64,000 bases of DNA from Synergistota bacterium (GCA_022839995.1 JALHIN010000002.1:44983-108982), one strand, 5' to 3'. Shown: positions 31,607-51,082, numbered from the stretch's first letter. Program-made: numbers and translations. Notes: generated by a model from the letters alone, not told the origin.

Positions 31607-31638
31607 GCGGAGTTTCCTGCTATTTTGGGATCCTGCTC

Positions 31639-33287: not shown

Positions 33288-34197
33288 CGGGATTCTTCTA
33301 CTGGACAAGCAGCCCGGGGAAACGAGCACGGGCTGTGTGGAAAAAGTCCGCAAGCTCTTCGGAAAGAAATGGAAAGCCGGGCACGGAGGGACCCTGGACA
33401 GTCCCGCTTCCGGATTGTTGGTCATCCTCGTAGGAACCGCCACTCGCCTGTGTCCCTTTGTCCAGGCCCTCCCGAAGGTTTACGAGGTTGCGGCACAACT
33501 AGGGGGGACTTCGGACACGGACGACGCTTCTGGTCACGTCCTGGAGAATCCGCCCGCGGTTTTCCCATCGGCAGAGACCTTCGATCGTGAACTATTGGAG
33601 TTTCTCGGGCTACGGATGCAGGTTCCCCCTGCAGTCTCTGCCATTCACGTCTCGGGGAAGCGAGCACACCGGCTCGCCCGTTCGGGGGAGAACCCGAAGC
33701 TCTTGCCGAGACCCGTAACAATCACGTCTTTTTCAGATGTGTCAGGCCCGGATTCGAGAGGAAGAGTCCGATTCAGGGTCATGTGCCACAAGGGAACGTA
33801 CGTTCGAAGCCTGGTTCGGGACCTAGGCATTCGCCTTGGCTGCGGGGCCTACGTCGTTTCTCTGAGAAGGATTTCGATCGGATCTTTCCGGATTGAAGAG
33901 GCCGATCCTGTGTCCTGCCTCTTCCGTCTAGGAGAGGACGCGGCCAGGGAACGTCTTCGTGACGTTGATGCCCTACTGGACCATTTTGTCGCCTATCGGG
34001 TTCCTCAAGAACTCGAAGGCGACATCCGGAACGGTAAGCCCGTTCCTTCTTCCTGCCTCCACAGGATTCACTGGGGGCTGATTCCTGAATCCGGGCACGT
34101 GGTGCTGCGAACTAAAAACCTCGCTTCCCTGGCCTTGTGGGAGCAACCCTCCCACTACAGGCCGGATATCGTCCTTTCCCTGGAGGATCGGGGATGA
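33280..34197 (+). CDS. truB: tRNA pseudouridine(55) synthase
   Basis: GILLLDKQPGETS...KAGHGGTLDSPASGLLVILVG (catalytic Asp motif). Confidence 0.9.
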   Translation: MADGILLLDKQPGETSTGCVEKVRKLFGKKWKAGHGGTLDSPASGLLVILVGTATRLCPFVQALPKVYEVAAQLGGTSDTDDASGHVLENPPAVFPSAETFDRELLEFLGLRMQVPPAVSAIHVSGKRAHRLARSGENPKLLPRPVTITSFSDVSGPDSRGRVRFRVMCHKGTYVRSLVRDLGIRLGCGAYVVSLRRISIGSFRIEEADPVSCLFRLGEDAARERLRDVDALLDHFVAYRVPQELEGDIRNGKPVPSSCLHRIHWGLIPESGHVVLRTKNLASLALWEQPSHYRPDIVLSLEDRG

Positions 34198-35135
34198 TCG
34201 CCGCAATCGGAGCCTTCGACGGCTTTCACGTGGGACACGCCAGGCTGTTCGAAACGGCCAGGGAGAGAGCCCTGCCGACCGCCTGCGAGTGGGGCGTCAT
34301 CACTTTCCATCCCCACCCACAGGCGCTTTTCGCCGGAAACGCTTTCCGGTACCTTTTCACCGAGCACGAAAGGGAAGCATTGGCACGGTACCGCCGCATT
34401 CCAAGGCTTGAAACCCTGCATTTCACGCGAGCGCTCGCGGATATGAAACCCTCCGAGTTCCTCGACTGGATCGGTCAAAGCTATGGAATCACCGGGTTGG
34501 TCGTCGGGGAGAATTTCCGCTTCGGAAGGGGGAGGACCGGTGACAGCCAGACCCTCCGGCAGGAGGGGATCGCCCGCCGGTGGTCTGTCGATATCCTGCC
34601 CCCCTTGCGAATGGGGAAAGAAACCGTGAGCAGCACCCTGATCCGGCAAAAAATCAGCCTTGGCGAAACCCGTTCGGCCGAACCCTTGCTGGGGCACCCC
34701 TTCTTTGTTACGGGAACGGTCATCCGAGGAGACCAGAGGGGTAGAAGACTGGGTTTTCCAACAGCCAACCTGGCTCTACCCGCCGAAAAACTCCTCCCGC
34801 AAAGAGGCGTTTACGCGGCTGGCGTCCTCCTGGAGAACCATTGGTGCCCGGCGGCGCTGAACATCGGTTTCAATCCGACTTTTGCGGGAATCCGCGCCTT
34901 GCGGGTCGAAGTCCATCTCATTGGTTTCGAAGGCGATCTCTACGGCCGCCACCTGACTGTGCTGTTCTTGGAACGGCTTCGGGGAGAACTCCAGTTCCCG
35001 GGTGTCCAGGAATTGATCCGCCGGATGCACGAGGACATTTCGGAGGCCGATGCCTCCTGGCGCCGGTACGCCAGCGGGCGTGAATCACAGCTGCAATGGC
35101 TCCATGAATGTCTCTCGATTCAAAGGAAGGATTGA
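34194..35135 (+). CDS. ribF: Bifunctional riboflavin kinase / FMN adenylyltransferase
   Basis: IGAFDGFHVGHARL (FAD synthetase) and a C-terminal riboflavin kinase domain GDQRGRRLGFPTANL...PTFAG...EVHLIGFEGDLYG. The ATG overlaps the truB stop. Confidence 0.9.
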   Translation: MIAAIGAFDGFHVGHARLFETARERALPTACEWGVITFHPHPQALFAGNAFRYLFTEHEREALARYRRIPRLETLHFTRALADMKPSEFLDWIGQSYGITGLVVGENFRFGRGRTGDSQTLRQEGIARRWSVDILPPLRMGKETVSSTLIRQKISLGETRSAEPLLGHPFFVTGTVIRGDQRGRRLGFPTANLALPAEKLLPQRGVYAAGVLLENHWCPAALNIGFNPTFAGIRALRVEVHLIGFEGDLYGRHLTVLFLERLRGELQFPGVQELIRRMHEDISEADASWRRYASGRESQLQWLHECLSIQRKD

Positions 35136-35160
35136 AGCACCTAGCCGCCCGTGGTAAGAT
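35132..35160 (+). promoter_or_regulatory. Putative sigma70-type promoter of the (now truncated) chromosomal tRNA-Arg copy
   Basis: TTGAAG (35132-35137), a 17-nt spacer, then TGgTAAGAT extended -10 (35152-60), ending 15 nt before tRNA position 1. Confidence 0.35.
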
Positions 35161-35222
35161 ATCCGTCGTTCCGGTGGGCCCGTAGCTCAGGTGGATAGAG
35201 CGACGGCCTCCTAAGCCGTAGG
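35146..35222 (+). repeat. attL: 77-bp direct repeat (copy 1)
   Basis: Base-for-base identical to 42070-42146. Comprises 30 bp of upstream sequence plus tRNA-Arg positions 1-47. Confidence 0.95.
35176..35222 (+). pseudogene. Truncated tRNA-Arg(CCU) remnant (5' 47 nt only)
   Basis: Acceptor 5' strand, D arm and anticodon arm are present. The sequence diverges after ...GCCGTAGG, so there is no T arm or 3' acceptor strand. Confidence 0.9.
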
Positions 35223-35280
35223 AGTGCGACGAAGGCCATAAACCCTTGCGGTCACTATATTGACGAACTTACCAAGGTTC

Positions 35281-35297
35281 TCAGGAGTGACGGCCTA
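35281..35297 (+). repeat. 17-bp element-internal repeat TCAGGAGTGACGGCCTA (copy 1, near attL)
   Basis: Identical to 41970-41986. Resembles the tRNA D-stem/anticodon-arm segment GAGCGACGGCCT(CCT)AAGC. Confidence 0.8.
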
Positions 35298-35350
35298 AGC
35301 ATTTTTATAATCGTTTCATATGTAAACTACACGCCCAATAAAGTTCATTT

Positions 35351-36424
35351 TTACCGTCCACTCGGGACCCCTTCGGGGGTCTTTTCTGTTTTCCGGGGGC
35401 GGCCTCTCTTGCCTACCTCATCGAGACCTTTTTCAAGTCGTTTTTGACGCCTTTCCAATAGACGGAAGACAGAATCATAACAAGATGGCGGTGTGTCGAA
35501 TTCGCGTATGAAATCCGGATCCGGCTCGTCCATTTGAGGTTTTTGGTGCCTGACCTTCCCAGGGTTGTGGAGCCACACATCCCCCGTTTGTGGGAACCCC
35601 CGATGCAAAGTCTGGGCCAGGAAACGTCTCTCTTCGGCTGTGATCTTCAGAATTCGGCTCATCCCGGCTTTATGCCCGATCATCCCGCAACGGGCACAAG
35701 TATAAAAAGCATCCTCTCCCGTCATATACCTGGCAAGCCGATAGACCACGAAACAGGCCGGGGTTTCTCTAGATTCCTCAAATAAAACCGGCCTTGTCTT
35801 CCTCAGTCTTCCCTTTAGCTCCATTTCCTGTGGAGGGATGGCTCGCAAGGTCGTCGGATAGGCCTTCATCAAGCGGTTTAGGTTCGCATATGCGGCTACC
35901 TTGCAACGTTCCCGTTGTTCTAAAGGCAGTTCTTCGTTCTTGCTCTTCTCATAATCTTCTACAACGAGACCGATTCCCTTCGAGAAAGAAAACCATGTGG
36001 CCAAATCCCCCAGGTGTGTGATTCCGGAAGGTACGTCCACCGCTCCCCAGGTCTCGCTGTCCGTTTCAGAGTGGATTCCAAAAAGGGCACACCTGGAAGC
36101 GATCTCCTTGCATTTCTCTTTGAATTCTTCCCGGTCCTGACAACGCGACAATTCCGCAATCAAATAAAAAAGGGGGACTTTGGCCGGCGTTTTCAATTCC
36201 TCCTCGGCCAACTCCTGGATTCCTTCTCGATCCTTCACGGAAAGAATTTCCTTGCCGTGATACGTAAGCAAAGCCGTCTCGCCGGTTTTAAGTTTGATTC
36301 TTCTGCTTTTCTTATCAGCCCCGTCCCTGAAGTCCCACAAGAGGTTGTCTCGGTCAACGCGATAGTAGAGGTTCTGGACCCTGATCGTCCCCTGTGGGCC
36401 TAATTCGTCAATAGATGAGTTCAT
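35351..36424 (-). CDS. Orphan 357-aa protein (element cargo), unknown function
   Basis: Long ORF with balanced composition, and GGGGGG 9 nt upstream of the ATG. C-terminal basic tail with an AT-hook-like GRPRK, and a single CARCG motif. I recognise no family. Confidence 0.6.
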   Translation of the reverse strand: MNSSIDELGPQGTIRVQNLYYRVDRDNLLWDFRDGADKKSRRIKLKTGETALLTYHGKEILSVKDREGIQELAEEELKTPAKVPLFYLIAELSRCQDREEFKEKCKEIASRCALFGIHSETDSETWGAVDVPSGITHLGDLATWFSFSKGIGLVVEDYEKSKNEELPLEQRERCKVAAYANLNRLMKAYPTTLRAIPPQEMELKGRLRKTRPVLFEESRETPACFVVYRLARYMTGEDAFYTCARCGMIGHKAGMSRILKITAEERRFLAQTLHRGFPQTGDVWLHNPGKVRHQKPQMDEPDPDFIREFDTPPSCYDSVFRLLERRQKRLEKGLDEVGKRGRPRKTEKTPEGVPSGR

Positions 36425-36496
36425 ATGTTTCTTTCCCCCCTATTTCGTATCATTTTACCATCAGCACCGCCAATAGAAAAGAAAGGAGGTGAAGAA

Positions 36497-36703
36497 ATGA
36501 CGATTCTTAGAGCCCTGAGGATGGAGCGTAGGCTCCCCATCGTAGAGATTGCCTTCCATGTGGGAATGGACGACGGGACCTACAGCAAGGCGGAGCGTGG
36601 GTTCAAGCGATTCCCTGAGCGGGTGCGGGAAAGAGTTGCCGGTTTCTTCGGTGTGGAACAGGGTGAGCTTTTCGAGGAGTCGGGCTATGCCCGAAAAAAC
36701 TAA
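36497..36703 (+). CDS. XRE/Cro-type helix-turn-helix regulator
   Basis: 68 aa: MTILRALRMERRLPIVEIAFHVGMDDGTYSKAERGFKRFPERV. AAAGGAGGTG lies 6 nt upstream of the ATG at 36497. It is divergent from the 357-aa gene. Confidence 0.7.
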   Translation: MTILRALRMERRLPIVEIAFHVGMDDGTYSKAERGFKRFPERVRERVAGFFGVEQGELFEESGYARKN

Positions 36704-37541
36704 CCCCCGGACGGGACCGGGGGAAAGAAAGGGTGAAAACTTTATGACAAACTATAACTGCAATGAGCATACAACCAGCAAGCCTATCATGTCAACCTTC
36801 GACGGGTCTCCGGTAGTGGTGGGAAGGTACGACGAGAAATCCCGCTCCTTCCTGAACATCGTGAAAGCATCGGACCGGTTCAGGACTCACGACGCCTACG
36901 GCTTCGACGAGCCCGCCGTGGAGGAGTTGAAGAAGTTGGGTTGCCTGGAGATCGAGCTACAGATTACCGGAGGCAACCGGTACCGGATCGATTTTCAGAC
37001 CTTCCTGAAGCAGGCCCGCCGGATCGATTGGCCTAAACGGGGTGAAACTCGCTTCCCAGCAAGGCTGTATGTTCCCATGAGCTTCTGGCAAGTCGTCCAG
37101 GATGAGGTTGAAATGCCGGCGGTCATGGAAGAGCCGTCTGGAATGGACGACGGGAACCAGGAAGGATTGCCTCTGGTTGAAGAGCCGGTTCTGGCTACGC
37201 TTTTTGACGAGAATTCCCTTCGTGCCGTGAACCTCCTGGTCATCGGCTGGGGGTGGATCGGTGGAGAAGCCAACGGCTATCCCCCGCGTTTTCGGGCCAC
37301 AATACATTGTGACCAGTGTTCCACGATGTTCGAATCCGAAGTTCCCCATTTCGATTCCTGTCCGAATTGTGGAGCTCCCACCAGGCAAATGCATTGTTGC
37401 TGTATAGATGTTCTTCCAATCCCTCCAAAGAGGAAATACGTTTTACAAAAAGAACACTTAATCATGGATTCCAAGAAAGAGGACGAATCTCTCGAAGTGA
37501 TCCTGGCCGCAAGGCCGGTTAAAGAAGGTGTGGCGGCATGA
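36687..37541 (+). CDS. Orphan protein with C-terminal Cys4 zinc ribbon (element cargo)
   Basis: CDQC-x13-CPNC followed by HCCC. The start could be ATG 36687 (GAGGAG 7 nt upstream) or ATG 36744. I recognise no family. Confidence 0.55.
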   Translation: MPEKTNPRTGPGERKGENFMTNYNCNEHTTSKPIMSTFDGSPVVVGRYDEKSRSFLNIVKASDRFRTHDAYGFDEPAVEELKKLGCLEIELQITGGNRYRIDFQTFLKQARRIDWPKRGETRFPARLYVPMSFWQVVQDEVEMPAVMEEPSGMDDGNQEGLPLVEEPVLATLFDENSLRAVNLLVIGWGWIGGEANGYPPRFRATIHCDQCSTMFESEVPHFDSCPNCGAPTRQMHCCCIDVLPIPPKRKYVLQKEHLIMDSKKEDESLEVILAARPVKEGVAA

Positions 37542-38335
37542 CCTCCACCCTTGAGGCCGAAAAGAGCTTCAGCCTCGACGAGGCCCTGAAGGTCTGCGAT
37601 TCCCTGCGGGCCCAGGGTCTTCCTGAAAGCGTCATCCAGAATTTCCAGAAATATGCTGGCTGTGACACCCCACCCCTGGAGCTTCTCCGACAGGAATTCG
37701 GCCTCCCTGTGCAAGCCATCGCCCAGGTAGGAAGATCCGCGGACGCCGAGATCCTCCTGACCCTCCAGGACGGTTCACAGGTGAGCCTCGGAAGCGTCAG
37801 CGACATTCACGCCTTCCGGAAGGTGAAGGAAAGGCTGTTCGCGGAAAACGGCCTGGTCCTTCGCTCGGGACTTCGTAAACAGTGGGACGGGATCCTGAAG
37901 GCCATTGCCCAGCTCAAGACCGTGATCGAGGCACCGGATGCGGACAGGGACCTTTTGATGACGGCCCTGAACGACATCTGGAGGAATTCCTTCCGGATCG
38001 GGGCCGAATACGTCCAAGGCAGCACGTCCCTCAGCCTGAACCTGGACGACGAACGAAACGAGGACGCCGTCGTCCTGACCCTGGAAACGTCCGAGAAAGG
38101 GCTCAAGACGCCCGCGGGCCGCCTGATCGTCCGGACCACGAGCATCATCCGCCGCCTGAGCCTCTGCGAGGTGGCCCAGGTGAGCCGGAAGGTCGTCACC
38201 AGGGAGTTGTGCAAGATCGGCTTCACGGCGATACGCGTGAACCTGGCAGGCAAAAGGATCGGGACAGGGGCCCGCGATCAGGTGAGGGCATGGGTTTCGC
38301 CTGCGGAATTCGACAGGGTGCTTAGGGGGCTGTGA
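37538..38335 (+). CDS. Orphan 265-aa protein (element cargo)
   Basis: ATGA overlap with the upstream ORF. The C-terminal segment SRKVVTRELCKIGFTAIRVNLAGKRIGTGARDQVRAWV is reminiscent of the C-terminal tails of phage/plasmid replication proteins, but it has no Walker A motif. Confidence 0.55.
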   Translation: MTSTLEAEKSFSLDEALKVCDSLRAQGLPESVIQNFQKYAGCDTPPLELLRQEFGLPVQAIAQVGRSADAEILLTLQDGSQVSLGSVSDIHAFRKVKERLFAENGLVLRSGLRKQWDGILKAIAQLKTVIEAPDADRDLLMTALNDIWRNSFRIGAEYVQGSTSLSLNLDDERNEDAVVLTLETSEKGLKTPAGRLIVRTTSIIRRLSLCEVAQVSRKVVTRELCKIGFTAIRVNLAGKRIGTGARDQVRAWVSPAEFDRVLRGL

Positions 38336-38336
38336 C

Positions 38337-38521
38337 CCCCTATAGTACCCCACTTTTTTTTCTTGCCGAAAAAGGGTCTGTCACACGTCATTCTGTCACA
38401 GAAGAAGGGAAAAACCTTGGTAGCACTACCTTCCACAAGTGACAGATTGTGACGAAAGAGAACCTTCTAAAGATAGTCCAGATTTTTAAGAAGAAAGAAA
38501 AGAAGTGGGGTACTATAGGGG
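38337..38521. repeat. Nested-palindrome/iteron module in the element's largest intergenic gap
   Basis: 19-bp perfect inverted repeat CCCCTATAGTACCCCACTT (38337-55) / AAGTGGGGTACTATAGGGG (38503-21). Inside it: TGTCAC at 38379 and 38394, GTGACA at 38439, GTGAC at 38449, a central GGTAGcaCTACC (38419-30), and flanking T9 and polypurine tracts. Confidence 0.85.
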
Positions 38522-38648
38522 CTTTTTGAATTATGAGAGCCCCTAAAGGGGAAGCGGGTGTGACCTGATGGGGGGTGTGGGTCTTCTACGGAGTTCTTGC
38601 TGTGAACCGGCGGTTTCCCCATTCTCATAGAAAGGGGCGGTCCAGGCT

Positions 38649-39158
38649 GTGAATCCCTTCGAGACAAGGCGAAAGCTTGCGGATCTGATCCAGGTGGTTG
38701 CGGAGCTTCATCCTCTAGGCGTGAACCTCCTGGAGAATCCCGTGGGGCTCGATGCGGCGGCATTGGCCGAGTGGGTGAAGGCCTTGGGTAGCGGTGGGGA
38801 AGCGGGCGGCTCCCGAAGGTCTCCGAATGAAAAGGCGAAGAGTCTGGAGAATCTCCTGGCTTCCTGTGTGGACCTCCTGGAGGAAATCGGAGGGTGGAGC
38901 AGGGTTGTAAGCGCGGTGAAGGTTCTGAAGCAGGGATACCCCGTCGATTGGAGGGTCTTCCGGGATTATTGGGACCTGACGGCATCGGTGGGGAAGTTCT
39001 CACGCCTTGGGAGCGAAACAATTATTGACCGAGTGGCCCGCAGGAACGGTGTGTCAGTCCCTACGGTGTACCGGAAGCGCGACCAGGTTCCTGAAAGGAT
39101 AGCGATAATCACGATGCGCTTGAATCCGGACGAAGGCCCGGGAAAAGTTTCGATCTAG
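38649..39158 (+). CDS. Orphan protein with C-terminal HTH (excisionase/resolvase-HTH-like)
   Basis: 169 aa. The C-terminal IIDRVARRNGVSVPTVYRKRDQV has the typical 'GVSxxTVYR' HTH pattern. GTG start with a weak RBS, so the start is uncertain. Confidence 0.5.
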   Translation: MNPFETRRKLADLIQVVAELHPLGVNLLENPVGLDAAALAEWVKALGSGGEAGGSRRSPNEKAKSLENLLASCVDLLEEIGGWSRVVSAVKVLKQGYPVDWRVFRDYWDLTASVGKFSRLGSETIIDRVARRNGVSVPTVYRKRDQVPERIAIITMRLNPDEGPGKVSI

Positions 39159-39170
39159 GAGGTGGCATGA

Positions 39171-39614
39171 ATGTTTGGAATGAGGCAGAACCAGGGTATT
39201 ACGTTGCAAAAGGGGAAGCTTGAAACGAATCGGCCGGCGGTGTGTCGTGTGGAAGTGACCCCTCCCCGGCGGAATCTTCCTGTTCTGTGGCGGATCTGTA
39301 ATCGGTGTGACCAGACCGGAATCGACAAGATGAAAGGGTTCCCTCAACGGTGCCCGGAATGCGGCGGAAAGGGAATCATCCTGACTGAAGACGGGAAGGC
39401 TATCCTGGAGCTTCTGGAAGTCGTGGAATCCCATTCTCCCGTGACGGACGGGCAGGTTCAGAAAGCGTTCGAGAAGGACCAGGCAGAACGACAGGAAAGG
39501 GAAAGGCAGAGAGAAGAGCAGCGGAAGGCGGAAGAGGAGCGAGAGAAGAAGGTGCGGAAAGCCTTGGAGAAATTGGTAAAGGCAGGCTTCAGCCCTGACG
39601 AACTCCTGCGGTGA
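39171..39614 (+). CDS. Orphan zinc-finger protein (CxxC...CxxCxGxG) with charged C-terminal tail
   Basis: CNRCDQTG...CPECGGKG (DnaJ-type finger pattern), then a QERERQREEQRKAEEEREKK tail. AGGAGGTG lies 6 nt upstream. Confidence 0.55.
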   Translation: MFGMRQNQGITLQKGKLETNRPAVCRVEVTPPRRNLPVLWRICNRCDQTGIDKMKGFPQRCPECGGKGIILTEDGKAILELLEVVESHSPVTDGQVQKAFEKDQAERQERERQREEQRKAEEEREKKVRKALEKLVKAGFSPDELLR

Positions 39615-39648
39615 GGGGAATTTTTACAATTTATTGAGCGTAAAAAAA

Positions 39649-39678
39649 GGGGGACACGAAAAAGCTGTCCCTTTTTTT
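39649..39678 (+). terminator. Rho-independent terminator ending the element's rightward operon
   Basis: Stem GGGACA/TGTCCC (extendable by G-U pairs), a 9-nt loop, then T7. An A7 run upstream makes it look bidirectional. Confidence 0.6.
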
Positions 39679-39857
39679 ATGCTTATATTATCTGTATGTA
39701 GTTATATTGTGTAGATAGATACTTTTGGAACATAAGGTTTTCCCCGATAGACAGTTTGAAGGATTGGGAAGATATTAACTACAAGAAGGAGAGCAAATCG
39801 CGTTAGGGCTTTAGTATTCATAACTAACACTATACATACTCAGAGGAGGGAATAGCA

Positions 39858-40393
39858 ATGAATGGCGTATCACATCTTGACGTTTTCCAACGGCTTTTGC
39901 TTTTAAACCAATTTATGATATTAAGGTTTTAGACGATGAAAACAAAGGTGATTACAAGCTAATGGAAGAGATTTTAAGAATGGGTTATGTTAAAGAGTAT
40001 GACGAAGTATTTTCTATTTATGAAGAGTTGCCGTTAGCTAGATGTAATAGAGTATGGGATATTTTATCGATGGCCGATGCCATTTATTTAGCCTGCGAGA
40101 CTGCGAGTAAAGAAGAAATCGAAGCTCTTGAGGAAGACCCTTGGTTCTTCAAGGGTTTTGATGGTAATAACGAGACGGCAGAACTACTTTATTGCAAGTT
40201 TATTATTGAAAAAATGGAACGGTTCACTCATCTTAAGAATAAAATGCCAAAGAATACTGACTTTAACACCCATTTTCCAACGAATTTTCGTTATGATCCT
40301 ATGCTTTCTATGTGGAAAAGCTTGCCGACAAGCGATCGCTGTAAATTATCCATGGAAAATGTAAAGAAAATATTGAATAGTTTAAATAAATAA
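39858..40393 (+). pseudogene. yfbU: YfbU (UPF0304) family gene interrupted by a 1-nt frameshift
   Basis: ATG at 39858 (AGAGGAGGG 7 nt upstream) reads MNGVSHLDVFQRLLLLNQFMIL, then hits TAG at 39930. Shifting frame at ~39923 continues KVLDDENKGDYKLMEEILRMGY... into track ORF 39962-40393. The joined sequence aligns colinearly with E. coli YfbU ([43 protein letters not shown]...YTHF) from memory. Confidence 0.7.
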
Positions 40394-40442
40394 TTGTTTA
40401 TTTATTGGACTTAATATTCATATTCGCAACTTTTGAGGACAC

Positions 40443-40475
40443 AAAAGGGCAAGCCCTCGCGGGCCTGCCCTTTTT
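40443..40475. terminator. Bidirectional rho-independent terminator between yfbU and the 121-aa gene
   Basis: Stem GGGCAAGCCC/GGGCCTGCCC (one mismatch), loop TCGC, flanked by A4 upstream and T5 downstream. Confidence 0.65.
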
Positions 40476-40487
40476 CTGACCTCACCG

Positions 40488-40853
40488 TTAGATTCTTTTC
40501 TCCAGGAGCTTAAGGATGCGTCCCACCTCCTTATCCTGCCCCGAGATCTTCTGCACCGTGACCAGGACGCTGTGGGCGAGCTTCAGAAGATCCGCGGCTA
40601 TGTCGATCTTCGGGTCCTTCAGCATGGCCTCCATGACACCCCAGGCCTTGCTGTTCAAACGCTGTTCCACATCCTCCAGGAGTTCCTTGATCTTCGGATC
40701 ATCGAGGGGGTCCCCGATTTCCCGCAAAAGTTCCTCGTGGTTTTTCTGTGCTTCCTCCAGGAGAGCATCGAGGTTCGGGGCGGTGCTTTCCAGGTCCTCC
40801 AGAAGGTGTTCGAAACGGTCCTTTTGCTTTTGTGTGGCTCTTCTCATTGTCAT
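40488..40853 (-). CDS. Orphan acidic all-helical 121-aa protein downstream of the integrase
   Basis: AAGGAGGG RBS; the second ATG (40847) has the better spacing. K/E/D/L-rich. I recognise no family. Confidence 0.55.
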   Translation of the reverse strand: MTMRRATQKQKDRFEHLLEDLESTAPNLDALLEEAQKNHEELLREIGDPLDDPKIKELLEDVEQRLNSKAWGVMEAMLKDPKIDIAADLLKLAHSVLVTVQKISGQDKEVGRILKLLEKRI

Positions 40854-40951
40854 TCCCTCCTTCGACTTCTCAGGACGCCCTAGGAACCCCTTGTCATGGT
40901 TGCCGGCGGGTAGTTCCTTCCTCTTCGCGATTGATGACCGCTTCTGAAGGC

Positions 40952-41911
40952 TCAGCGACGGGCATCCCCCCTTTGCAGGGACCTGAGACGGGGCTTCCCC
41001 TCGGTTTTCAGCAAGCTGTTAAGCGGGCTGGCCTTGGAGTGTGCTTCCCTGAGGTCGTCATCGGACAGGGCAAGATAGCGTTTCGTCATGTCCAGGTTGG
41101 AATGGCCCATTTCCCTTTGAAGGGCGAAGAGGTTTCCGTTGTTCCTCAGGAACATGATGGCGTGACAATGGCGGAGGTCGTAAGGGCTGATCTTCACTCC
41201 AAGGCGTTTTCCGTACACCTTCTTTAACCGGTAGCCCCAGGAGTTGATCCGGTAGGATTCGCCTTCGTCGCTGCAGAAGATCGGAGATCCCTGCCAAGCC
41301 TCTGGACGGACGGCAAGCAGGCGAGAGATGGCCTGGCTGCAAATCCTGGAAATGACGAGGGTTCGGGCCCTTCGAGTCTTCGAGACTTCCGGGCGGATAT
41401 GAACCTCAAAGCCCGCAGGATTGAAGTCGCAGGGGTAGAGTTGGAGGGCTTCCCCCGGGCGGATCCCCGTATCGAGTTGGAGAAGGAGCAGGGCCTTGTC
41501 CCGTAGACCGGCGAAGGTCCCCGTATCCGGGAGATCGAGAAGCCGCTGGAGCACGTCGGGGGCGATCCGCACGATGCGGGGCTCGGCGTGCCTGGCCTTT
41601 ATCCCCTCGATCGGGTTCTGGTGGAGCAATCCTTCTTCCCTGGCCCAGTCGAAGAAGACCTTGAGATACTTCCTTCTTATATTGAATGTGGCCGGTGCCA
41701 CATTTTCCCCCAGGTACCGGTAGACACAGGCGTTCAGCGTGGACGTTCCCCAGGCCTCGGGGTAGCGTGTGAAGAAGCGGACGACATGGACCCGATAGTC
41801 CTTCAGCGTCCTGTCTGAAAGGCCGGTGGCCGTCCTCCACAGAAGAAAGGCCTCCAGGGCATCCTCCCAGGTCTCATAGCACGGCTTTCGAAGCGGAACA
41901 ACGTTTTGCAT
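40952..41911 (-). CDS. int: Tyrosine-type site-specific recombinase/integrase
   Basis: 319 aa. N-terminal SAM-like core-binding domain and a catalytic domain with R (DTGIRPGE), HxxR (YDLRHCHA), H (MGHSNL) and Y (TKRYL). Confidence 0.9.
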   Translation of the reverse strand: MQNVVPLRKPCYETWEDALEAFLLWRTATGLSDRTLKDYRVHVVRFFTRYPEAWGTSTLNACVYRYLGENVAPATFNIRRKYLKVFFDWAREEGLLHQNPIEGIKARHAEPRIVRIAPDVLQRLLDLPDTGTFAGLRDKALLLLQLDTGIRPGEALQLYPCDFNPAGFEVHIRPEVSKTRRARTLVISRICSQAISRLLAVRPEAWQGSPIFCSDEGESYRINSWGYRLKKVYGKRLGVKISPYDLRHCHAIMFLRNNGNLFALQREMGHSNLDMTKRYLALSDDDLREAHSKASPLNSLLKTEGKPRLRSLQRGDARR

Positions 41912-41969
41912 GATCCTCCCCTCGCTTTCTTAAGTTCCGCAAGGGAGAGGCTTAGTCCGGAAGGCTTGT

Positions 41970-41986
41970 TCAGGAGTGACGGCCTA
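41970..41986 (+). repeat. 17-bp element-internal repeat TCAGGAGTGACGGCCTA (copy 2, near attR)
   Basis: Identical to 35281-35297. Confidence 0.8.
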
Positions 41987-42055
41987 CCCGTTTGACCTAT
42001 TGGAAATGGCCAGTGGAGGAGTGGGACGGTTCACAGACTTTGGAGGGAGAAAACG

Positions 42056-42084
42056 TTGCCCGGACGGAACGCCCGTGGTAAGAT
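42056..42084 (+). promoter_or_regulatory. Putative promoter of the intact tRNA-Arg, with the -35 on element-side DNA
   Basis: TTGCCC (42056-61), a 17-nt spacer, then TGgTAAGAT (42076-84). The -10 lies within the repeat and the -35 lies outside it. Confidence 0.35.
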
Positions 42085-42146
42085 ATCCGTCGTTCCGGTG
42101 GGCCCGTAGCTCAGGTGGATAGAGCGACGGCCTCCTAAGCCGTAGG
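42070..42146 (+). repeat. attR: 77-bp direct repeat (copy 2)
   Basis: Identical to 35146-35222. Confidence 0.95.
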
Positions 42147-42176
42147 TCGCCAGTTCGAGTCTGGCCGGGCCCGCCA
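42100..42176 (+). tRNA. tRNA-Arg (anticodon CCU), CCA encoded
   Basis: Hand-folded cloverleaf: acceptor GGGCCCG/CGGGCCC, D arm GCTC/GAGC, anticodon arm ACGGC-CTCCTAA-GCCGT, T arm GCCAG-TTCGAGT-CTGGC, discriminator G, CCA. Confidence 0.9.
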
Positions 42177-42178
42177 TC

Positions 42179-42198
42179 GCCCTGAAAAGGGCTTTTTT
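42179..42198 (+). terminator. Small terminator-like hairpin after tRNA-Arg
   Basis: GCCCT-GAAA-AGGGC followed by T6. Confidence 0.4.
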
Positions 42199-42233
42199 CT
42201 TTGCCTGCAGGTTCAAGGCGAAAGGGAGTCGGC

Positions 42234-42752
42234 GTGCTGAAACGATCGGGTTTCTTTCTTTTTTTCCTCTTTTTTCTGGCACTTTGTTCCTCCCTCTACA
42301 ACTGGCCGGCAACAGTGATGGAAATTAGGCTAGAAAACGGCCCAATCCTTTTTTCCGACGCTGTCCCGGAAGGCTGGTCGATCAAAAGCCAAATCGTCCA
42401 CTCTTTGGAGCGCACGCCGGTCGAAGACGAATACCGGGTTGTCGGAGGGCGGATTTGGCAGTGGGAGGAACGGTTTCGCTCCAACAACGCTGGGCTTCCG
42501 ACAGTCGAACCATCATGCGGGCGTTTCCTTTCATCAAAGGAATGGTTTGTCATTCGAGGGGGAAGAAATCGCTGGGAATCCCTCGACTATCGGATCGGCA
42601 CTTCCTCGCTCGGAAAGAACGTCCTTGTGTTGGAGGGGTACGGTGCGGCCGTCGTCCACGAAAGGTTTGCCGGGCAAAGGATACGGTTGCAATCAAGAAC
42701 CCGTCCACTTGGAAAAATCTTTCCGGTTTTAAACCTGTTCGATTTCCGTTAG
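42234..42752 (+). CDS. DUF1850 domain protein (TRAP-transporter associated)
   Basis: N-terminal TM segment plus VHSLERTPVEDEYRVVGGRIWQWEERFRSNNAGLP, and its position 5' of a fused TRAP permease. GTG at 42234 has AAGGGAG upstream. Confidence 0.7.
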   Translation: MLKRSGFFLFFLFFLALCSSLYNWPATVMEIRLENGPILFSDAVPEGWSIKSQIVHSLERTPVEDEYRVVGGRIWQWEERFRSNNAGLPTVEPSCGRFLSSKEWFVIRGGRNRWESLDYRIGTSSLGKNVLVLEGYGAAVVHERFAGQRIRLQSRTRPLGKIFPVLNLFDFR

Positions 42753-42798
42753 ACTGTTCCTGAACCAACGAACTCTTTTCTGGAAGTGGGGGATCCTC

Positions 42799-44787
42799 TT
42801 GATTGGAGAAGGAAAGGAAAACATTGTCGCCGGGGGAACCGAAAAAATCGACCTCGACGAGATCATGCGGAAATACGATGTGGAGGCCCGCTTCAGGACA
42901 CTATCAGGCAAGCAGGCCCTCTTGGTGACGGCCATCGCGATGGCCATGTCGCTTTTCCATCTCTATACCTCCGGGATGGGACTTCTGCTGGCAATCAAAC
43001 AGGGAGCCGTTCACCTGTCGTTTGCCCTTTCTCTCATTTTTTTGCTTTATCCGGCGACCAACAAGGGCAGAAAAGACATCATCCCCTGGTACGACATGGC
43101 GCTGGCAGCCGTTTCGGCCTTCTCTTCTCTTTACCTCGTCCTGTTCTTCGATCAGCTCGTCATGCGGGCAGGTCTGCCAACGACCCTGGACCTGGCCATG
43201 GGCTTCGTCCTGATCGCCCTGCTCCTGGAGGCCACACGCAGGGTTTCGAACCCCATCCTGCCCGGAATCGCCATCTTCAGCCTCCTCTACTGCTATTTCG
43301 GCCGTTACATGCCGGACATGTTTGCCCACAGGGGATTCGACATCCCAAGGATCATCAACCACATGTACTTGGGGACAGAGGGTATTTTCGGGGTTCCGCT
43401 GGGAGTTTCGTCCACTTTCGTCTTCATGTTCATCCTGTTCGGGACCTTCCTTGAACAGACGGGGATGGGAAAATTCATCATCGACCTCGCCATGGCCATC
43501 GCAGGTTGGTCCACAGGCGGACCGGCCAAGGTCGCTGTAGTCAGTTCGGGCCTGATGGGGACAATTTCCGGTTCCTCGGTGGCAAACGTCTGCACAACGG
43601 GAATGTTCACGATCCCCCTCATGAAGAGCGTCGGGTACAAGCCTTACTTTGCGGGAGCTGTCGAAGCGGTTGCTTCCACGGGCGGGCAGATCATGCCGCC
43701 GGTCATGGGAGCTGCAGCCTTCATCATGGCGGAATTTCTGGGCGTGCCGTACATCAAGGTCGCACTGGCAGCGATCATTCCGGCCCTCCTTTACTACCTG
43801 GCCGTCATCGTCCAGGTTCACCTGGAAGCCTCCCGCCTCGGACTCAAAGGGTTGCCCAGGGAACAGCTGCCGCGCATCTGGGGACTTCTGAAAACGAGAG
43901 GCCAACTTTTGATCCCTCTAATCGGGATCGTCTATTTCCTGCTGTCCGGGTACACCCCCATCAAGGCCGCTTTTTACGGGATCCTCCTCAACATCGTGTG
44001 TTCCTACCTGAACAAGGAAACCGCCCTGACGCTGCCCAAGTACAAGAGCGCCCTTGAGAACGGGGCCAGGACCGCCCTAGGGGTGGCGGCGGCCTGCGCT
44101 ACCGTCGGCATGGTCGTAGGCATGGCGACCCTGACGGGCCTAGGACTCAGGATCGCGGGAGCCATCGTGGAAATCGCCCACGGGAGCCTCATCATCACGC
44201 TGATCATGACGATGATCACCAGTATCCTCCTCGGTGCAGGACTCCCGACAACGGCGAACTTTATCGTCACGAGCACCATGGCCGCACCAGCCCTCTTCGC
44301 CCTTGGCGTTCCTCCGATCGCGGCCTACATGTTCGTCCTGTACTTTGGAATTGCTGCCGACCTGAGCCCGCCCGTTGCTTTGGCCGCCTATGCGGGTGCC
44401 GGGATCGCAGGAGACGACCCGATGAAGACGGGATTCACGGCCATGAAGCTTGCGCTGGCGGGCTTCCTGGTTCCCTACATTTACGTTTACAACCCCATGC
44501 TGGTTCTCGTGAATATCGAACCGGTCAGCCTGACGATCAGCGTCGTAACGGCCATTATCGGGGTCTTCCTCCTTGGGATTGGAACAATCGGCTTCTACAA
44601 GGCACCCGTAAACGGATTGTTCCGCATCCTCGCGATTATTGGAGCCCTGGGCCTGATGACGCCAGGCATCAAATCGGACATCGCGGGACTTTCAATCCTG
44701 GTTGGCCTGCACTTCTTCCAGGTGATGAAGGCCAGAAAGATTCGCGGCTCGTCGGACACGATCAACCAAGCAAACTCCGACGCCTAG
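42799..44787 (+). CDS. TRAP transporter fused permease (4TM/12TM, TAXI-type)
   Basis: 662 aa, highly hydrophobic. Typical N-terminus ...RFRTLSGKQALLVTAIAMAMSLFHLYTSG and a DctM-like body. Confidence 0.9.
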   Translation: MIGEGKENIVAGGTEKIDLDEIMRKYDVEARFRTLSGKQALLVTAIAMAMSLFHLYTSGMGLLLAIKQGAVHLSFALSLIFLLYPATNKGRKDIIPWYDMALAAVSAFSSLYLVLFFDQLVMRAGLPTTLDLAMGFVLIALLLEATRRVSNPILPGIAIFSLLYCYFGRYMPDMFAHRGFDIPRIINHMYLGTEGIFGVPLGVSSTFVFMFILFGTFLEQTGMGKFIIDLAMAIAGWSTGGPAKVAVVSSGLMGTISGSSVANVCTTGMFTIPLMKSVGYKPYFAGAVEAVASTGGQIMPPVMGAAAFIMAEFLGVPYIKVALAAIIPALLYYLAVIVQVHLEASRLGLKGLPREQLPRIWGLLKTRGQLLIPLIGIVYFLLSGYTPIKAAFYGILLNIVCSYLNKETALTLPKYKSALENGARTALGVAAACATVGMVVGMATLTGLGLRIAGAIVEIAHGSLIITLIMTMITSILLGAGLPTTANFIVTSTMAAPALFALGVPPIAAYMFVLYFGIAADLSPPVALAAYAGAGIAGDDPMKTGFTAMKLALAGFLVPYIYVYNPMLVLVNIEPVSLTISVVTAIIGVFLLGIGTIGFYKAPVNGLFRILAIIGALGLMTPGIKSDIAGLSILVGLHFFQVMKARKIRGSSDTINQANSDA

Positions 44788-44816
44788 GCCCAGGAACTGA
44801 AAATCGAAGGTGCCTT

Positions 44817-44844
44817 GCCGCCCCGAGCGGAAGCTCGGGGCGGC
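44817..44844 (+). terminator. Hairpin after the TRAP permease (weak U-tract)
   Basis: 12-bp perfect stem GCCGCCCCGAGC/GCTCGGGGCGGC, loop GGAA, followed by ATAACCCCTTTC. Confidence 0.4.
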
Positions 44845-44869
44845 ATAACCCCTTTCAGGAGGTTTATCT

Positions 44870-47659
44870 ATGCCGGAGGATTACAAGAATACGCTCAACC
44901 TGCCCCAGACAGATTTCCCGATGAGAGCCAACCTTGCCACGAGGGAACCCGGTTTCCTGAAGATGTGGACGGAGATGGACCTTTATGGGAAACTGATGTC
45001 CAGAACCGACGGGAAACCCCTTTTCATCCTTCATGACGGCCCACCGTACGCCAACGCGAACATCCACATCGGAACCGCCTTCAACAAGATCCTGAAGGAC
45101 TTTATCCCCAAATACAAGTGGATGCAGGGATACCGGGCCCCCTACATCCCCGGCTGGGATACTCACGGCCTCCCGATTGAGCTGCGGGTCCTGAAAGAAG
45201 AGGGGGCTACCAAAGAATCCATTGACCCTGTGGTGTTGAGATCGAAATGCACCGCCTATGCCAGCCGTTTCATCGACATCCAGCGGGAAGAATTCAAGCG
45301 GCTGGGTGTTCTGGGCGACTGGAACCACCCCTACGTCACGTTTACGCCGGAATACGAGGCTGCCCAGCTCGGCGCTTTTGCCGACATGGTGGAGAAGGGG
45401 TTCGTCTACAAGGGTTTCAAGACCGTCTATTGGTGCACGGATTGCCAAACCGCACTCGCCGCAGCTGAAATCGAGTACGAGGACGAATCTTCCCCGTCGA
45501 TTTTTGTCTCCTATCCGATGGCCGATGCTGGAGAAAGGTTCGAGGCTTTAGCCGGAAAAGATGTTTTTGTCATCATTTGGACAACGACACCCTGGACGCT
45601 TCCGGCAAGCATGGCCGTGGCCCTTCAGCCGGACTACGAATACGTCTTCGCCCCTGCGGGCGGCAACGTTTACCTCCTGGCCGCCGAACTTCTGAGTTCT
45701 GTCGAACAGGAAACCGGCTTGGCTTTCTCCGAACCCATCCTTCGCTGCAAGGGTCGAGAACTGGAAGGGCTTGTCGCGATCCACCCGTTTTATGATGAAC
45801 GAAAAGTCCCCCTGGTCCTCGCCGACTATGTCACCCTGGATTCCGGCAGCGGTTGTGTGCATACCGCCCCTGGACACGGTGTCGAAGACTTCGAAACCGG
45901 GATCCGGTACGGCCTGGAAATTTACAACCCGGTCGACCCGACAGGCCGATTCCTCCCCGAAACGCCGCTCGTCGGCGGACTTTCACTGGAGAAGGGAAGC
46001 GAACGGGTCTTCGAGCTTCTCCTCGAAAAAGGGCGCCTGCTGGGCAAAGGAAGAATCCTGCACTCCTATCCGCATTGCTGGAGATGCAAGCAACCCATCA
46101 TCTTCCGTGCGACAGAACAATGGTTCGTCGCGGTTTCTGAATTCCGCAAGGAAGCCCTTGAAGCAATCGACCGAGTCGAGTGGATCCCCGACTGGGGGAA
46201 AGAGCGAATTTCGAACATGGTCAGGGACCGATCCGACTGGTGCATCAGCCGCCAGAGGGTCTGGGGAGTTCCCATCCCTGCCTTTTATTGCGAGGATTGC
46301 GGGGAACTGATCCTGACGCCAGACAGAATCCGCCTTGTGCAGGAAAAGGTGCGCCAGGAGGGAAGCAGCATCTGGTGGAAGGCCGCTCCTGATGAACTGC
46401 TCGGCGATCGCGCGGTCTGTGACAAGTGCGCTTCCGCGAAATTGCGGAAGGAGACCGACATCATGGATGTCTGGTTCGATTCCGGATCGAGCCACATCGC
46501 CGTCCTGGAAACCCGTCCCGAGCTCCGCTGGCCGGCAGACCTCTACCTGGAGGGGAGCGATCAGCATCGGGGGTGGTTCCAGACGTCCCTCCTGAATGCC
46601 GTCGCGACTCGAGGCAATGCGCCTTTTCGGTCCGTGCTGACCCACGGCTTCATCGTCGACGGGGAAGGCCGAAAGATGTCGAAATCCCTGGGCAATACCG
46701 TCAGCCCCCAGGAGGTGATCGAGAAATACGGTGCCGACATCCTCAGGCTATGGGTAGCCTCCACGGATTACCGCAACGATATCCGGATCTCGCAAACCAT
46801 CATTGACAATCTTGTGGAGATGTACCGGCGCATCCGCAACACCTACCGGTACCTTCTCAGCAACGTGTTCGACTTCCAACCGGAAAGGGATTCCGTTTCT
46901 CCCGAGGAAATGGACGAGATGGACCGTTGGATCCTTTCGAGGCTGCAGGCGGTGACCGATCGAGTGACCCAGGGCTTCGAACGTTTCGAATTCCATATCC
47001 CGACCTTTGTCGTCTATCAATTCTGCGTCAATGAACTTTCCGCGTTCTACCTGGACGTCAGCAAGGACCGCCTTTATGCGTCCGCTGCCGCGGAAAGAAC
47101 CCGCCGGAGCTGTCAAACTGTTCTCTGGAAACTGCTCCATGTTCTTGTCCGCGCCCTGGCCCCGGTGCTGAGCTTCACGACCGAAGAAACATGGCAGGCC
47201 ATGAGGACCATCGACAGCGGCCTCCCAGAAAGCGTTTTTCTGGCCGATTGGCCCAAAGTCGAACCGAAATGGACTAACCAGGAACTGGAAGCGAAGTGGG
47301 AAGGGATCCTCTCGGTCCGAGGAGGATTTTGCCGTGCCCTGGAAGCCGCCAGGGGCAAGGGTCTGATCGGAAAAAGCCTCGAGGCAGAGATCGCGGTGCT
47401 TGAAGCCCCGGAAAAGATTCGCGGCACACTCCTCTCTGCAACGGAAGAGGACTGGGAAATGATCTGCATCGTATCCACCTTCCGAATGGACGCCGAATCA
47501 GCGGATGATTACGATCTCATCTTCGACGACGATGAGACAGGTCTCCGGGTGGGCATCCGAAAAGCCCGCGGGACGGCCTGTCCCAGGTGCTGGAGGATCT
47601 CCGCCGAATCTGGCGAAAATGGACTTTGCACTCGCTGTTCACGGGTGGTGGCCGGTTGA
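44870..47659 (+). CDS. ileS: Isoleucine--tRNA ligase
   Basis: 929 aa. HIGH-type motif (PPYANANIHIGTAFN), KMSKS (KMSKSLGN), an editing domain, and C-terminal zinc-binding CPRC...CTRC. Confidence 0.95.
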   Translation: MPEDYKNTLNLPQTDFPMRANLATREPGFLKMWTEMDLYGKLMSRTDGKPLFILHDGPPYANANIHIGTAFNKILKDFIPKYKWMQGYRAPYIPGWDTHGLPIELRVLKEEGATKESIDPVVLRSKCTAYASRFIDIQREEFKRLGVLGDWNHPYVTFTPEYEAAQLGAFADMVEKGFVYKGFKTVYWCTDCQTALAAAEIEYEDESSPSIFVSYPMADAGERFEALAGKDVFVIIWTTTPWTLPASMAVALQPDYEYVFAPAGGNVYLLAAELLSSVEQETGLAFSEPILRCKGRELEGLVAIHPFYDERKVPLVLADYVTLDSGSGCVHTAPGHGVEDFETGIRYGLEIYNPVDPTGRFLPETPLVGGLSLEKGSERVFELLLEKGRLLGKGRILHSYPHCWRCKQPIIFRATEQWFVAVSEFRKEALEAIDRVEWIPDWGKERISNMVRDRSDWCISRQRVWGVPIPAFYCEDCGELILTPDRIRLVQEKVRQEGSSIWWKAAPDELLGDRAVCDKCASAKLRKETDIMDVWFDSGSSHIAVLETRPELRWPADLYLEGSDQHRGWFQTSLLNAVATRGNAPFRSVLTHGFIVDGEGRKMSKSLGNTVSPQEVIEKYGADILRLWVASTDYRNDIRISQTIIDNLVEMYRRIRNTYRYLLSNVFDFQPERDSVSPEEMDEMDRWILSRLQAVTDRVTQGFERFEFHIPTFVVYQFCVNELSAFYLDVSKDRLYASAAAERTRRSCQTVLWKLLHVLVRALAPVLSFTTEETWQAMRTIDSGLPESVFLADWPKVEPKWTNQELEAKWEGILSVRGGFCRALEAARGKGLIGKSLEAEIAVLEAPEKIRGTLLSATEEDWEMICIVSTFRMDAESADDYDLIFDDDETGLRVGIRKARGTACPRCWRISAESGENGLCTRCSRVVAG

Positions 47660-50392: not shown

Positions 50393-50467
50393 GGGGCTGT
50401 GGCGCAGTGGGAGCGCGATTCCTTCGCACGGAATAGGCCAGGGGTTCGAATCCCCTCAGCTCCACCA
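50393..50467 (+). tRNA. tRNA-Ala (CGC)
   Basis: Hand fold: acceptor GGGGCTG/CAGCTCC with the G3:U70 identity pair, anticodon loop TTCGCAC, T loop TTCGAAT, CCA encoded. Confidence 0.85.
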
Positions 50468-50503
50468 GGATATCGATCTTGACTCTGTTATCATAGAGAG
50501 CGT

Positions 50504-50581
50504 CGGGGCGTAGCGCAGCCTGGTCAGCGCACCTGCTTTGGGAGCAGGGTGTCGAAGGTTCGAATCCTTTCGCCCCGACCA
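50504..50581 (+). tRNA. tRNA-Pro (UGG)
   Basis: Acceptor CGGGGCG/CGCCCCG, anticodon arm CCTGC-TTTGGGA-GCAGG, T loop TTCGAAT, CCA. Confidence 0.85.
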
Positions 50582-50602
50582 CCCTGAAGCTTAGCGGAAA
50601 AC

Positions 50603-50679
50603 GCGGGAATAGCTCAGCTGGCTAGAGCGATGGCCTTCCAAGCCGTAGGTCGCGGGTTCGAATCCCGTTTCCCGCTCCA
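50603..50679 (+). tRNA. tRNA-Gly (UCC)
   Basis: Acceptor GCGGGAA/TTCCCGC, anticodon loop CTTCCAA, discriminator U, CCA. Confidence 0.85.
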
Positions 50680-50690
50680 AAGAAATATAG

Positions 50691-50767
<77 letters not shown>

Positions 50768-50793
50768 CTTGGGAACAATGAAGGATTGGAGCC

Positions 50794-50871
50794 GGTGAGC
50801 GTAGCTCAATTGGTCAGAGCACTGGACTGTGGCTCCAGTGGTTGGGGGTTCAAGTCCCCTCGCTCACCCCA
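50794..50871 (+). tRNA. tRNA-His (GUG) with encoded G-1
   Basis: An extra 5' G opposite discriminator C, acceptor GTGAGCG/CGCTCAC, anticodon loop CTGTGGC, CCA. Confidence 0.85.
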
Positions 50872-50888
50872 AATTGAAGGCGGGACGT

Positions 50889-50964
50889 GCGCCCGTAGCT
50901 CAGTGGACAGAGCGGCGGACTTCGGATCCGTTGGTCGCGGGTTCAAATCCTGCCGGGCGCGCCA
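50889..50964 (+). tRNA. tRNA-Arg (UCG)
   Basis: Acceptor GCGCCCG/CGGGCGC, anticodon arm GCGGA-CTTCGGA-TCCGT, CCA. Confidence 0.8.
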
Positions 50965-50995
50965 GCCAATATAAAACCGAATATCGAGTTGCTGT

Positions 50996-51071
50996 GGACC
51001 GTTAGCTCAACTGGCAGAGCACCTGACTCTTAATCAGGGGGTTACAGGTTCGATTCCTGTACGGTCCACCA
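50996..51071 (+). tRNA. tRNA-Lys (CUU)
   Basis: Acceptor GGACCGT/ACGGTCC, anticodon arm CCTGA-CTCTTAA-TCAGG, CCA. Confidence 0.85.
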
Positions 51072-51082
51072 TTTTTTTTCCG

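Follow-up and report, generated by a model that had tools for sequence, protein, structure and literature searches.

Tyrosine recombinases exchange strands conservatively, with no DNA duplicated, within a short overlap common to attP and attB. The overlap is typically 6–8 bp long. For islands at tRNA genes, the counts given in the Islander paper are 3760 islands with a 3′ tDNA fragment versus 159 with a 5′ fragment (4%; 159/3919) (PMC4383910). Two further papers, where they touch on target orientation, rate 5′ use as the less frequent or a seldom seen case, with Zhao & Williams 2002 and Williams 2002 as their sources (PMC6563490, PMC8371274). In the anticodon-loop class of sites, as Williams 2002 is summarised in passages of two of these sources, the crossover lies in the 7-nt loop and the stem forms the inverted core sites (PMC4383910, PMC8371274). 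A 5′-sided target is also described for the pTN3-like integrases of Thermococcales (archaea), whose attB is a tRNA 5′ half and which restore an uninterrupted tRNA (PMC8371274). In those systems a "suicidal" integrase gene spans attP and is split on integration, and the tRNA is reportedly expressed from the integrase promoter (PMC8371274).

Here we describe a locus in the window, a 64,000-nt stretch of a Synergistota genome (GCA_022839995.1, JALHIN010000002.1:44983-108982; positions are counted from its first letter). Like the 5′-fragment islands of Islander, it is a tyrosine-integrase island between an intact tRNA gene and an upstream cognate 5′ fragment. In terms of the Islander criteria, we observed an intact tRNA gene with an end fragment in the same orientation (nt 1–47, not internal), a tyrosine integrase within the interval, a 5′ fragment upstream of the tDNA at 6.9 kb (range 2–200 kb), and an interval missing from relatives (five empty sites). 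The 5′ part of the gene is displaced, with the regenerated gene downstream of the element, as in the 5′-restoring ("reversed target orientation") class. The arrangement is already a documented minority class, to which this locus adds a clean example. In the present locus the repeated block stops inside the promoter, with the −10 common and the −35 swapped while TTG and the 17-nt spacing are kept, and the host phylum is Synergistota. In contrast to the pTN3-like systems, the integrase gene here is unsplit, with 158 nt between it and the block, and diverges from a tRNA gene that has its own promoter copy.

A repeated block spans part of the promoter and the 5′ part of tRNA-Arg(CCT)

ARAGORN called a single intact tRNA-Arg(CCT) gene (Table 1). 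A repeat finder returned a direct repeat of 77 nt, 100% identical, with copy starts 6924 bp apart and 6,847 bp between the copies, which defines an element of ~6.85 kb. Chance origin of a 77-nt perfect repeat in 64 kb is far excluded. The block consists of 30 nt of upstream sequence plus nt 1–47 of the tRNA gene (positions numbered by hand from the ARAGORN call and the sequence). The anticodon stem is formed by nt 28–32/40–44 and the loop, CTCCTAA, by nt 33–39 (42132–42138); the repeat stops 3 nt beyond the stem. ARAGORN called no tRNA at the attL copy (35146–35222).

Both repeat copies contain the extended −10 TGgTAAGAT (35152–60 and 42076–84). The −35 hexamer is TTGCCC on the right (42056–61) and TTGAAG on the left (35132–37, overlapping the ribF stop codon), and exactly 17 nt separate each from TAAGAT. 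An initial annotation had drawn the block with the same limits, just past the anticodon stem, had placed the intact gene at the integrase-proximal right end, and had located both −35 hexamers, the extended −10 and the 17-nt spacing; the repeat finder, the position of the integrase facing the tRNA gene and all coordinates agreed with it. A simple sigma-70 scan called neither tRNA promoter (8/12 and 7/12 matches versus a threshold of 9/12). We accepted the putative tRNA promoter because its hexamers and spacing are kept across the empty sites, not for consensus strength.

Table 1. Positions in the window of the attachment-site features and genes of the element
Feature	Coordinates	Strand	Remarks
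Ancestral tRNA-Arg(CCT) promoter (putative), orphaned at attL	35132..35160	+	TTGAAG, 17-nt spacer, extended −10; same in five empty sites with differing spacers
attL block copy	35146..35222	+	30 nt upstream + displaced tRNA nt 1–47 (35176–35222)
Left arm (P′)	35223..35363	.	Holds CCCTTGCGG (35243–51) and TCAGGAGTGACGGCCTA (35281–97); conserved in L003, L165
357-aa backbone gene, left end	35351..36424	-	ORF; segment 35223–36424 has 98.8% nucleotide identity to L165
Intrinsic terminator (predicted)	35364..35393	+ only	8-bp stem GGGACCCC/GGGGTCTT, T-rich tail; 141 nt past truncated tRNA
92-aa HTH_31 protein, 330-aa and 265-aa genes	36425..38335	+	93–97% nucleotide identity to L165, L003
169-aa gene and 147-aa anti-TRAP-like zinc ribbon gene	38649..39614	+	PF15777 E = 1.1e-8; both conserved in L165, L003
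Variable cargo slot	39615..40487	+	Low G+C; YfbU-domain protein 39962–40393
121-aa gene directly downstream of integrase	40488..40853	-	Conserved beside int in L165, L166
Tyrosine integrase (int), 319 aa	40952..41911	-	PF00589 E = 5e-20; phrog_1 integrase E = 1.8e-45
Right arm (P)	41912..42069	.	CCGCAAGGG (41937–45), TCAGGAGTGACGGCCTA (41970–86), −35 TTGCCC (42056–61)
attR block copy	42070..42146	+	Extended −10 (42076–84), leader, tRNA nt 1–47; probable crossover 42132–38
Regenerated intact tRNA-Arg(CCT)	42100..42176	+	ARAGORN call; sequence equals the tRNA of all five empty-site relatives
Native intrinsic terminator (predicted) of tRNA gene, chromosomal DNA	42179..42202	+	Kept in empty sites

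Empty sites in relatives

The locus is flanked by infB, rbfA, a DHH phosphoesterase gene, truB and ribF on the left and by DUF1850, a TRAP DctM gene and ileS on the right. A RibF scan with one genome per species gave seven Synergistaceae/Synergistales loci, and we observed an empty site in five of these (L001, L008, L002, L004 and L005). In the five relatives, tRNA-Arg(CCT) lies 41–44 bp past ribF and in the same orientation as in the window, rather than in an opposite orientation or another context. The upstream sequence of the empty sites reads TTGAA(G/C), 17 nt, TGGTAA(G/T)AT, with spacer bases that vary between species. TTGCCC was present and identical in 3/3 element copies and in no empty site. 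The left block copy continues the ancestral sequence; unrelated DNA precedes the right copy.

Because the left copy matches the empty sites, the element lies on the 5′ side of the tRNA gene. Because the empty sites carry TTGAA(G/C), the comparison identifies TTGAAG as the ancestral −35, kept at the left copy, and TTGCCC as element DNA. The initial annotation had likewise read TTGAAG as chromosomal, and all five relatives agree. It had also assigned the whole right-hand promoter and the first 47 nt of the intact gene to the element; on sequence comparison, the −35 of the intact gene is element-derived, and its 5′ part probably is. At 50393–51167, 8 kb downstream, is an eight-tRNA cluster (Ala, Pro, Gly, Arg, His, Arg, Lys, Leu), whose position is conserved in L001, L002, L004 and L008.

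Expression of the tRNA had been proposed to depend on element sequence. This was overstated, as the left and right promoters share TTG, the 17-nt spacing, the extended −10 and the leader, and differ only in the other three bases of the −35. In promoters with an extended −10, the −35 is known to matter little. Viewed as an element-supplied promoter, the right-hand copy has a TTGCCC that is element DNA and an extended −10 within the shared block, and the consensus scan calls none. The locus shows how much promoter such an element must carry, with a shared block that ends just upstream of the extended −10. The tRNA had further been described as reading a rare codon. We observed that AGG makes up 59/265 Arg codons (22%) in eight host genes of the window (29612–47659) and 48/173 (28%) in the element genes (35351–41911). 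The "rare codon" label is carried over from E. coli and does not apply here. Since AGG is common, restoring the tRNA gene becomes more important, not less. We set aside the idea of an AGG-rich element that needs tRNA-Arg(CCT), which 28% in the element versus 22% in the host supports weakly.

Horizontal spread and element content

L003 and L165 each carry a further copy of the element at this site, with 76-bp repeats that end at tRNA nt 47. L003 is a different species (RibF 75% identical), and L165 is a JGI metagenome contig with host flanks identical to those of L003. L165 and L166 come from samples JGI 3300050333 and SRR17288838. The element backbone in L003 and L165 had 91–99% nucleotide identity to the window copy, versus only 71–82% for the flanking ribF, DUF1850, dctM and ileS. 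Because the backbone is far closer than the host genes, it must have moved horizontally in the recent past, and these identities indicate an element that spreads horizontally. Vertical inheritance with repeated loss was ruled out, since the element is more alike across hosts than the host genes are. With five empty sites, three element variants and two host species, the locus is a well-controlled natural example. From a practical point of view it is a small island with cargo, of an ordinary kind.

The cargo varies among the three copies, in a slot bounded by the 121-aa gene and the anti-TRAP-like gene. In the window, G+C drops sharply at 39500–40500 (36–39% versus ~58% in the surroundings), and the L165 slot encodes a D12 methyltransferase, a DUF87 ATPase and a 443-aa protein. 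The left-end gene of L003 differs from the 357-aa gene of the window, whose product had no match in Pfam, PHROGs, NCBIfam, PADLOC or PDB sequences. Searches of all backbone proteins against the same five sets returned only HTH_31, the anti-TRAP-like zinc ribbon and YfbU. The 121-aa protein had no family match in Pfam or NCBIfam; it is a candidate that may act as an accessory or directionality factor.

Both arms of the element contain short repeats. The 17-mer TCAGGAGTGACGGCCTA has one direct copy per arm (2 matches versus 0.16 expected in the window), and the 9-mer CCGCAAGGG of the right arm recurs inverted as CCCTTGCGG in the left. GCAAGGGA is invariant upstream of int across the clade of the window integrase. 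These three sets of sequences may be binding sites for accessory proteins. We also observed a 24-nt inverted repeat (CCCCTATAGTACCCCACTTTTTTT/AAAAGAAGTGGGGTACTATAGGGG; 38337–38360/38498–38521; 96% complementary, arms 137 nt apart) in the intergenic DNA that follows the 265-aa gene, perhaps an origin, an operator or a miniature insertion.

A simple tyrosine integrase

The integrase is the sole Phage_integrase-domain ORF and the sole recombinase between the repeats. Its start codon faces the tRNA gene; 158 nt separate it from the right repeat copy, and the tRNA 5′ end is 188 nt away. R137, K178, R247, H248, H270 and Y279 were invariant in an alignment with 40 homologues. The protein is of the simple Xer-like type, in which we detected no separate arm-binding domain. 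It shares the simple two-domain tyrosine recombinase layout of the chromosome-dimer resolvases XerC and XerD, its best NCBIfam matches, but scored well below the NCBIfam cut-offs for both (90 bits versus 335 for XerC, 82 versus 330 for XerD). XerC and XerD have a housekeeping context, whereas this integrase gene belongs to an island that spreads horizontally and has a tRNA repeat at its ends.

A scan of the minus strand from 41905 to 42180 (P arm and tRNA region) for a sigma-70-like int promoter with a match of at least 8/12 found none. Excision to a circle would bring int to ~0.4 kb downstream of the 357-aa gene, both on one strand, and int might depend on circularisation for its expression.

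Proposed integration and crossover

Our data point with high probability to a small integrative element that was inserted by its own tyrosine integrase at the tRNA-Arg(CCT) gene after ribF, with an attP-borne block restoring the 5′ part of the gene. Conservative site-specific recombination would insert the element into tRNA-Arg(CCT). The attP would carry a 75–77-bp copy of the target, containing the extended −10, the leader and tRNA nt 1–47, and the predicted attP junction reads ...GTTGCCCGGACGGAAC, the 75-bp block, then AGTGCGACGAAGG... As this attP block matches the gene from the extended −10 through the anticodon stem-loop, the element would land on the 5′ side of the gene. The long identity block beside the overlap would then be the element's replacement for the displaced gene part. 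The intact gene would be a hybrid, in which the element gives the TTGCCC −35 and the chromosome gives the rest of the tRNA; with an anticodon-loop crossover, the element would also give the −10, the leader and approximately the first 35 nt of the tRNA. The chromosomal promoter and a dead 47-nt tRNA stub would have been pushed 6.9 kb upstream, to attL.

We compared the block with repeats at related loci. Eleven same-orientation relatives had exact or near-exact repeats that start between tRNA nt −79 and 29 (nt 8–29 in 8/11) and reach the 3′ end or beyond. In the tRNA-Lys remnant of L131, element DNA gives way to tRNA sequence precisely at the 5′ edge of the anticodon stem. The window block is the mirror image of the relatives' blocks: it holds the whole anticodon stem-loop and ends past the stem, and theirs start at or before nt 29. 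From this mirror-image block and the junctions of the relatives we infer a crossover in the anticodon loop (42132–38).

One base does not follow this model. Base −29 (35147 and 42071) is G in both copies of the window host and A in both copies of the L003/L165 host; it tracks the host and not the relatedness of the elements, which an anticodon-loop crossover does not predict. The pattern, from two host species only, may be coincidence or the result of conversion between the repeats after integration. It keeps two minor alternatives alive. In one of these, the same element and integrase would exchange strands in the promoter/leader (about −29 to −1); attR would then have an entirely chromosomal tRNA body, and the dead attL stub would hold the nt 1–47 that the element brought. 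The match of the attR base −29 to the host in both species fits this, as does an inverted 7-mer, CGGAACG (42064–70)/CGTTCCG (42091–97), that brackets the −10 region in attR. The 7-mers are, however, 20 nt apart, too far for a 6–8-bp overlap, the junctions of the family relatives lie at or before the anticodon stem, and nothing would select for the element's perfect 47-nt tRNA segment. With the −29 evidence restricted to two host species, we consider this exchange unlikely. In the other, the 76–77-bp copies are both host DNA produced by target-site duplication, and the element has no tRNA sequence and replaces only the −35. Two repeat copies that are always 100% identical, an edge base −29 that follows the host and an attP sequence that was not recovered (0 matches to the attL/attP junction pattern in viral_contigs) would all agree with a duplication. 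The only recombinase of the element, however, is a tyrosine integrase, a conservative enzyme that duplicates no DNA, and the relatives' repeats range from 49 to 171 bp and are always anchored on the tRNA end that needs restoring. Variable lengths anchored in this way argue for attP-borne gene segments and not for a fixed staggered cut, which makes target-site duplication very improbable.

The element could also be a decayed remnant, fixed and immobile, whose arrangement is a historical scar without present function. The same viral_contigs search detected no circular form, the Pfam, PHROGs, NCBIfam and PADLOC searches recognised no excisionase, replication or transfer genes, and the minus-strand scan of 41905–42180 gave no sigma-70-like int promoter. 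Against decay, the integrase ORF is intact with all catalytic residues, the repeats are perfect, five relatives have clean empty sites, and three cargo variants occur in two host species with a backbone identity of 91–99% versus 71–82% for host genes. A dead remnant is thus distinctly unlikely. Insertion by the element's own integrase, with an attP-borne block that restores the 5′ part of the gene, remains our preferred reading.

The orphaned promoter and the attL terminator

The initial annotation had the left promoter firing into the element, antisense to the 357-aa gene. The conserved terminator at 35364–35393 does not favour such read-through: a transcript from attL would stop there after ~225 nt. 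The terminator consists of GGGACCCCTTCGGGGGTCTT then TTCTGTTTTC and lacks a U-tail when read on the minus strand. Its overlap with the minus-strand 357-aa ORF is confined to the last ~13 codons. The hairpin and T-tail were present in all three element copies, including L165 and L003 (11223–11252), despite the different adjoining gene of L003. The hairpin appeared in both the MFE and the centroid fold, and the attL RNA as a whole was not unusually structured (z = −0.75 versus shuffles). To judge from its sequence and position, the terminator looks like an insulator against the orphaned tRNA promoter.

Since the terminator is in the P′ arm, a unit of promoter, tRNA 5′ half and terminator would exist in the excised circle too. 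This raises a bolder scenario that we regard as fairly unlikely: the family would have switched repeatedly between 3′- and 5′-restoring attP through the two-fold symmetry of the anticodon stem-loop, and the 5′-restoring attP would be a transcribed unit (promoter, tRNA 5′ half, terminator) whose ~225-nt tRNA-half RNA has a role of its own. Both parts, the switching of orientation and the transcribed attP unit, are compatible with the data. If true, the attachment site would be transcribed in the circle and at attL, and the RNA could act, for example, in regulation or insulation of the element.

Orientation of tRNA targets in the integrase family

We surveyed 80 metagenome loci and closer homologues of the window integrase. 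The usual 3′-side arrangement was observed for 31 integrase copies, with the tRNA gene 83–281 nt upstream in the same orientation. A reversed arrangement, with the tRNA 5′ end facing the int start, was observed for 20 copies, one of which (L131) has a 5′-truncated tRNA-Lys. After removal of near-duplicates, ~13 reversed versus ~26 usual groups remained; about one third of the loci beside a tRNA gene are reversed. In a quick neighbour-joining tree without support values, the reversed loci form whole clades. The clade of the window integrase (62–97% identical to it) is reversed wherever a tRNA gene is present, with Arg-CCT, Gly-CCC (L161) and Arg-CCG (L162, L169) as targets and a constant int-to-tRNA distance of 187–192 nt. 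In most reversed cases, a sigma-70-like promoter was called in the int–tRNA spacer, no more than ~65 nt before the tRNA gene.

We searched for the distal 5′ fragment at the other reversed loci with exact 12/13-mers and blastn-short in 3–11 kb flanks (L095, L096, L098, L124, L131, L135, L136, L139, L155, L156, L160, L161, L162, L169, L081, L102 and L194) and found none. The fragment is confirmed for the three Arg-CCT elements, and the other loci are placed by orientation and adjacency. The initial annotation had called the 5′-restoring arrangement uncommon. This holds overall, where it is a minority (159 versus 3760 in Islander; PMC4383910), but the arrangement looks frequent in this integrase family. 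The same annotation would have given way to an integrase clade routinely found with 5′-side duplications, and this is at least partly so: the window clade is reversed wherever a tRNA gene is present, with the distal fragment itself seen in the Arg-CCT elements only.

The 3′-restoring relatives include L091 and L112 (tRNA-Trp), L101 (tRNA-His) and L140 (tRNA-Leu), with integrases of ~305–320 aa and 40–53% amino-acid identity. Desulfofundulus kuznetsovii DSM 6115 and Desulfofundulus sp. TPOSR also encode members of the family (homologues P0026 and P0057). Like the window element, the 3′-restoring relatives have a tRNA gene near the start of int (83–281 nt upstream) and long blocks that include the anticodon stem-loop. 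They differ in that the tRNA gene is parallel to int and the block runs from nt 8–29 to the 3′ end, of which the window is the mirror image. With both orientations common, the family is a good system for the evolution of attP orientation and target choice. For genome annotation, 5′ fragments need to be provided for in island finders and tRNA callers.

Other loci of the family

At L081 (8657–10933) and L102 (2075–4344), a tRNA-Leu(CAA) gene lies between two family integrases, the upstream one divergent from it (reversed type) and the downstream one parallel to it (usual type), which suggests an island on either side of this single gene. At L131 (9600–9810), int adjoins a tRNA-Lys(TTT) remnant whose 5′ half is missing, with tRNA-Glu after it. 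Either int stands at the distal end of an island of the usual type and the remnant is its displaced 3′ fragment, or the insertion left the gene unrestored. Two family integrases lie head to head, ~350 bp apart, at L087 (5047–7221) and L088 (580–2754), with no tRNA called between them.

The L167 integrase, a member of the window clade (64% identical), adjoins no tRNA gene. We observed a ~125-bp imperfect repeat with a 41-bp exact core there (1315–1437 and 6182–6305), located 70–190 bp upstream of int and again 4.9 kb further, which brackets ankyrin-repeat and Mrr-like nuclease genes. The islands of close integrase relatives at L161–L163, L168 and L169 carry defence-like cargo, namely SIR2 with a DUF87 (HerA-like) ATPase, a 1968-aa DUF4011 helicase, DUF4747, DUF3800 and Mrr-methyltransferase fusions. 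Several of these islands contain an HTH_17 gene followed by a second, unrelated integrase.
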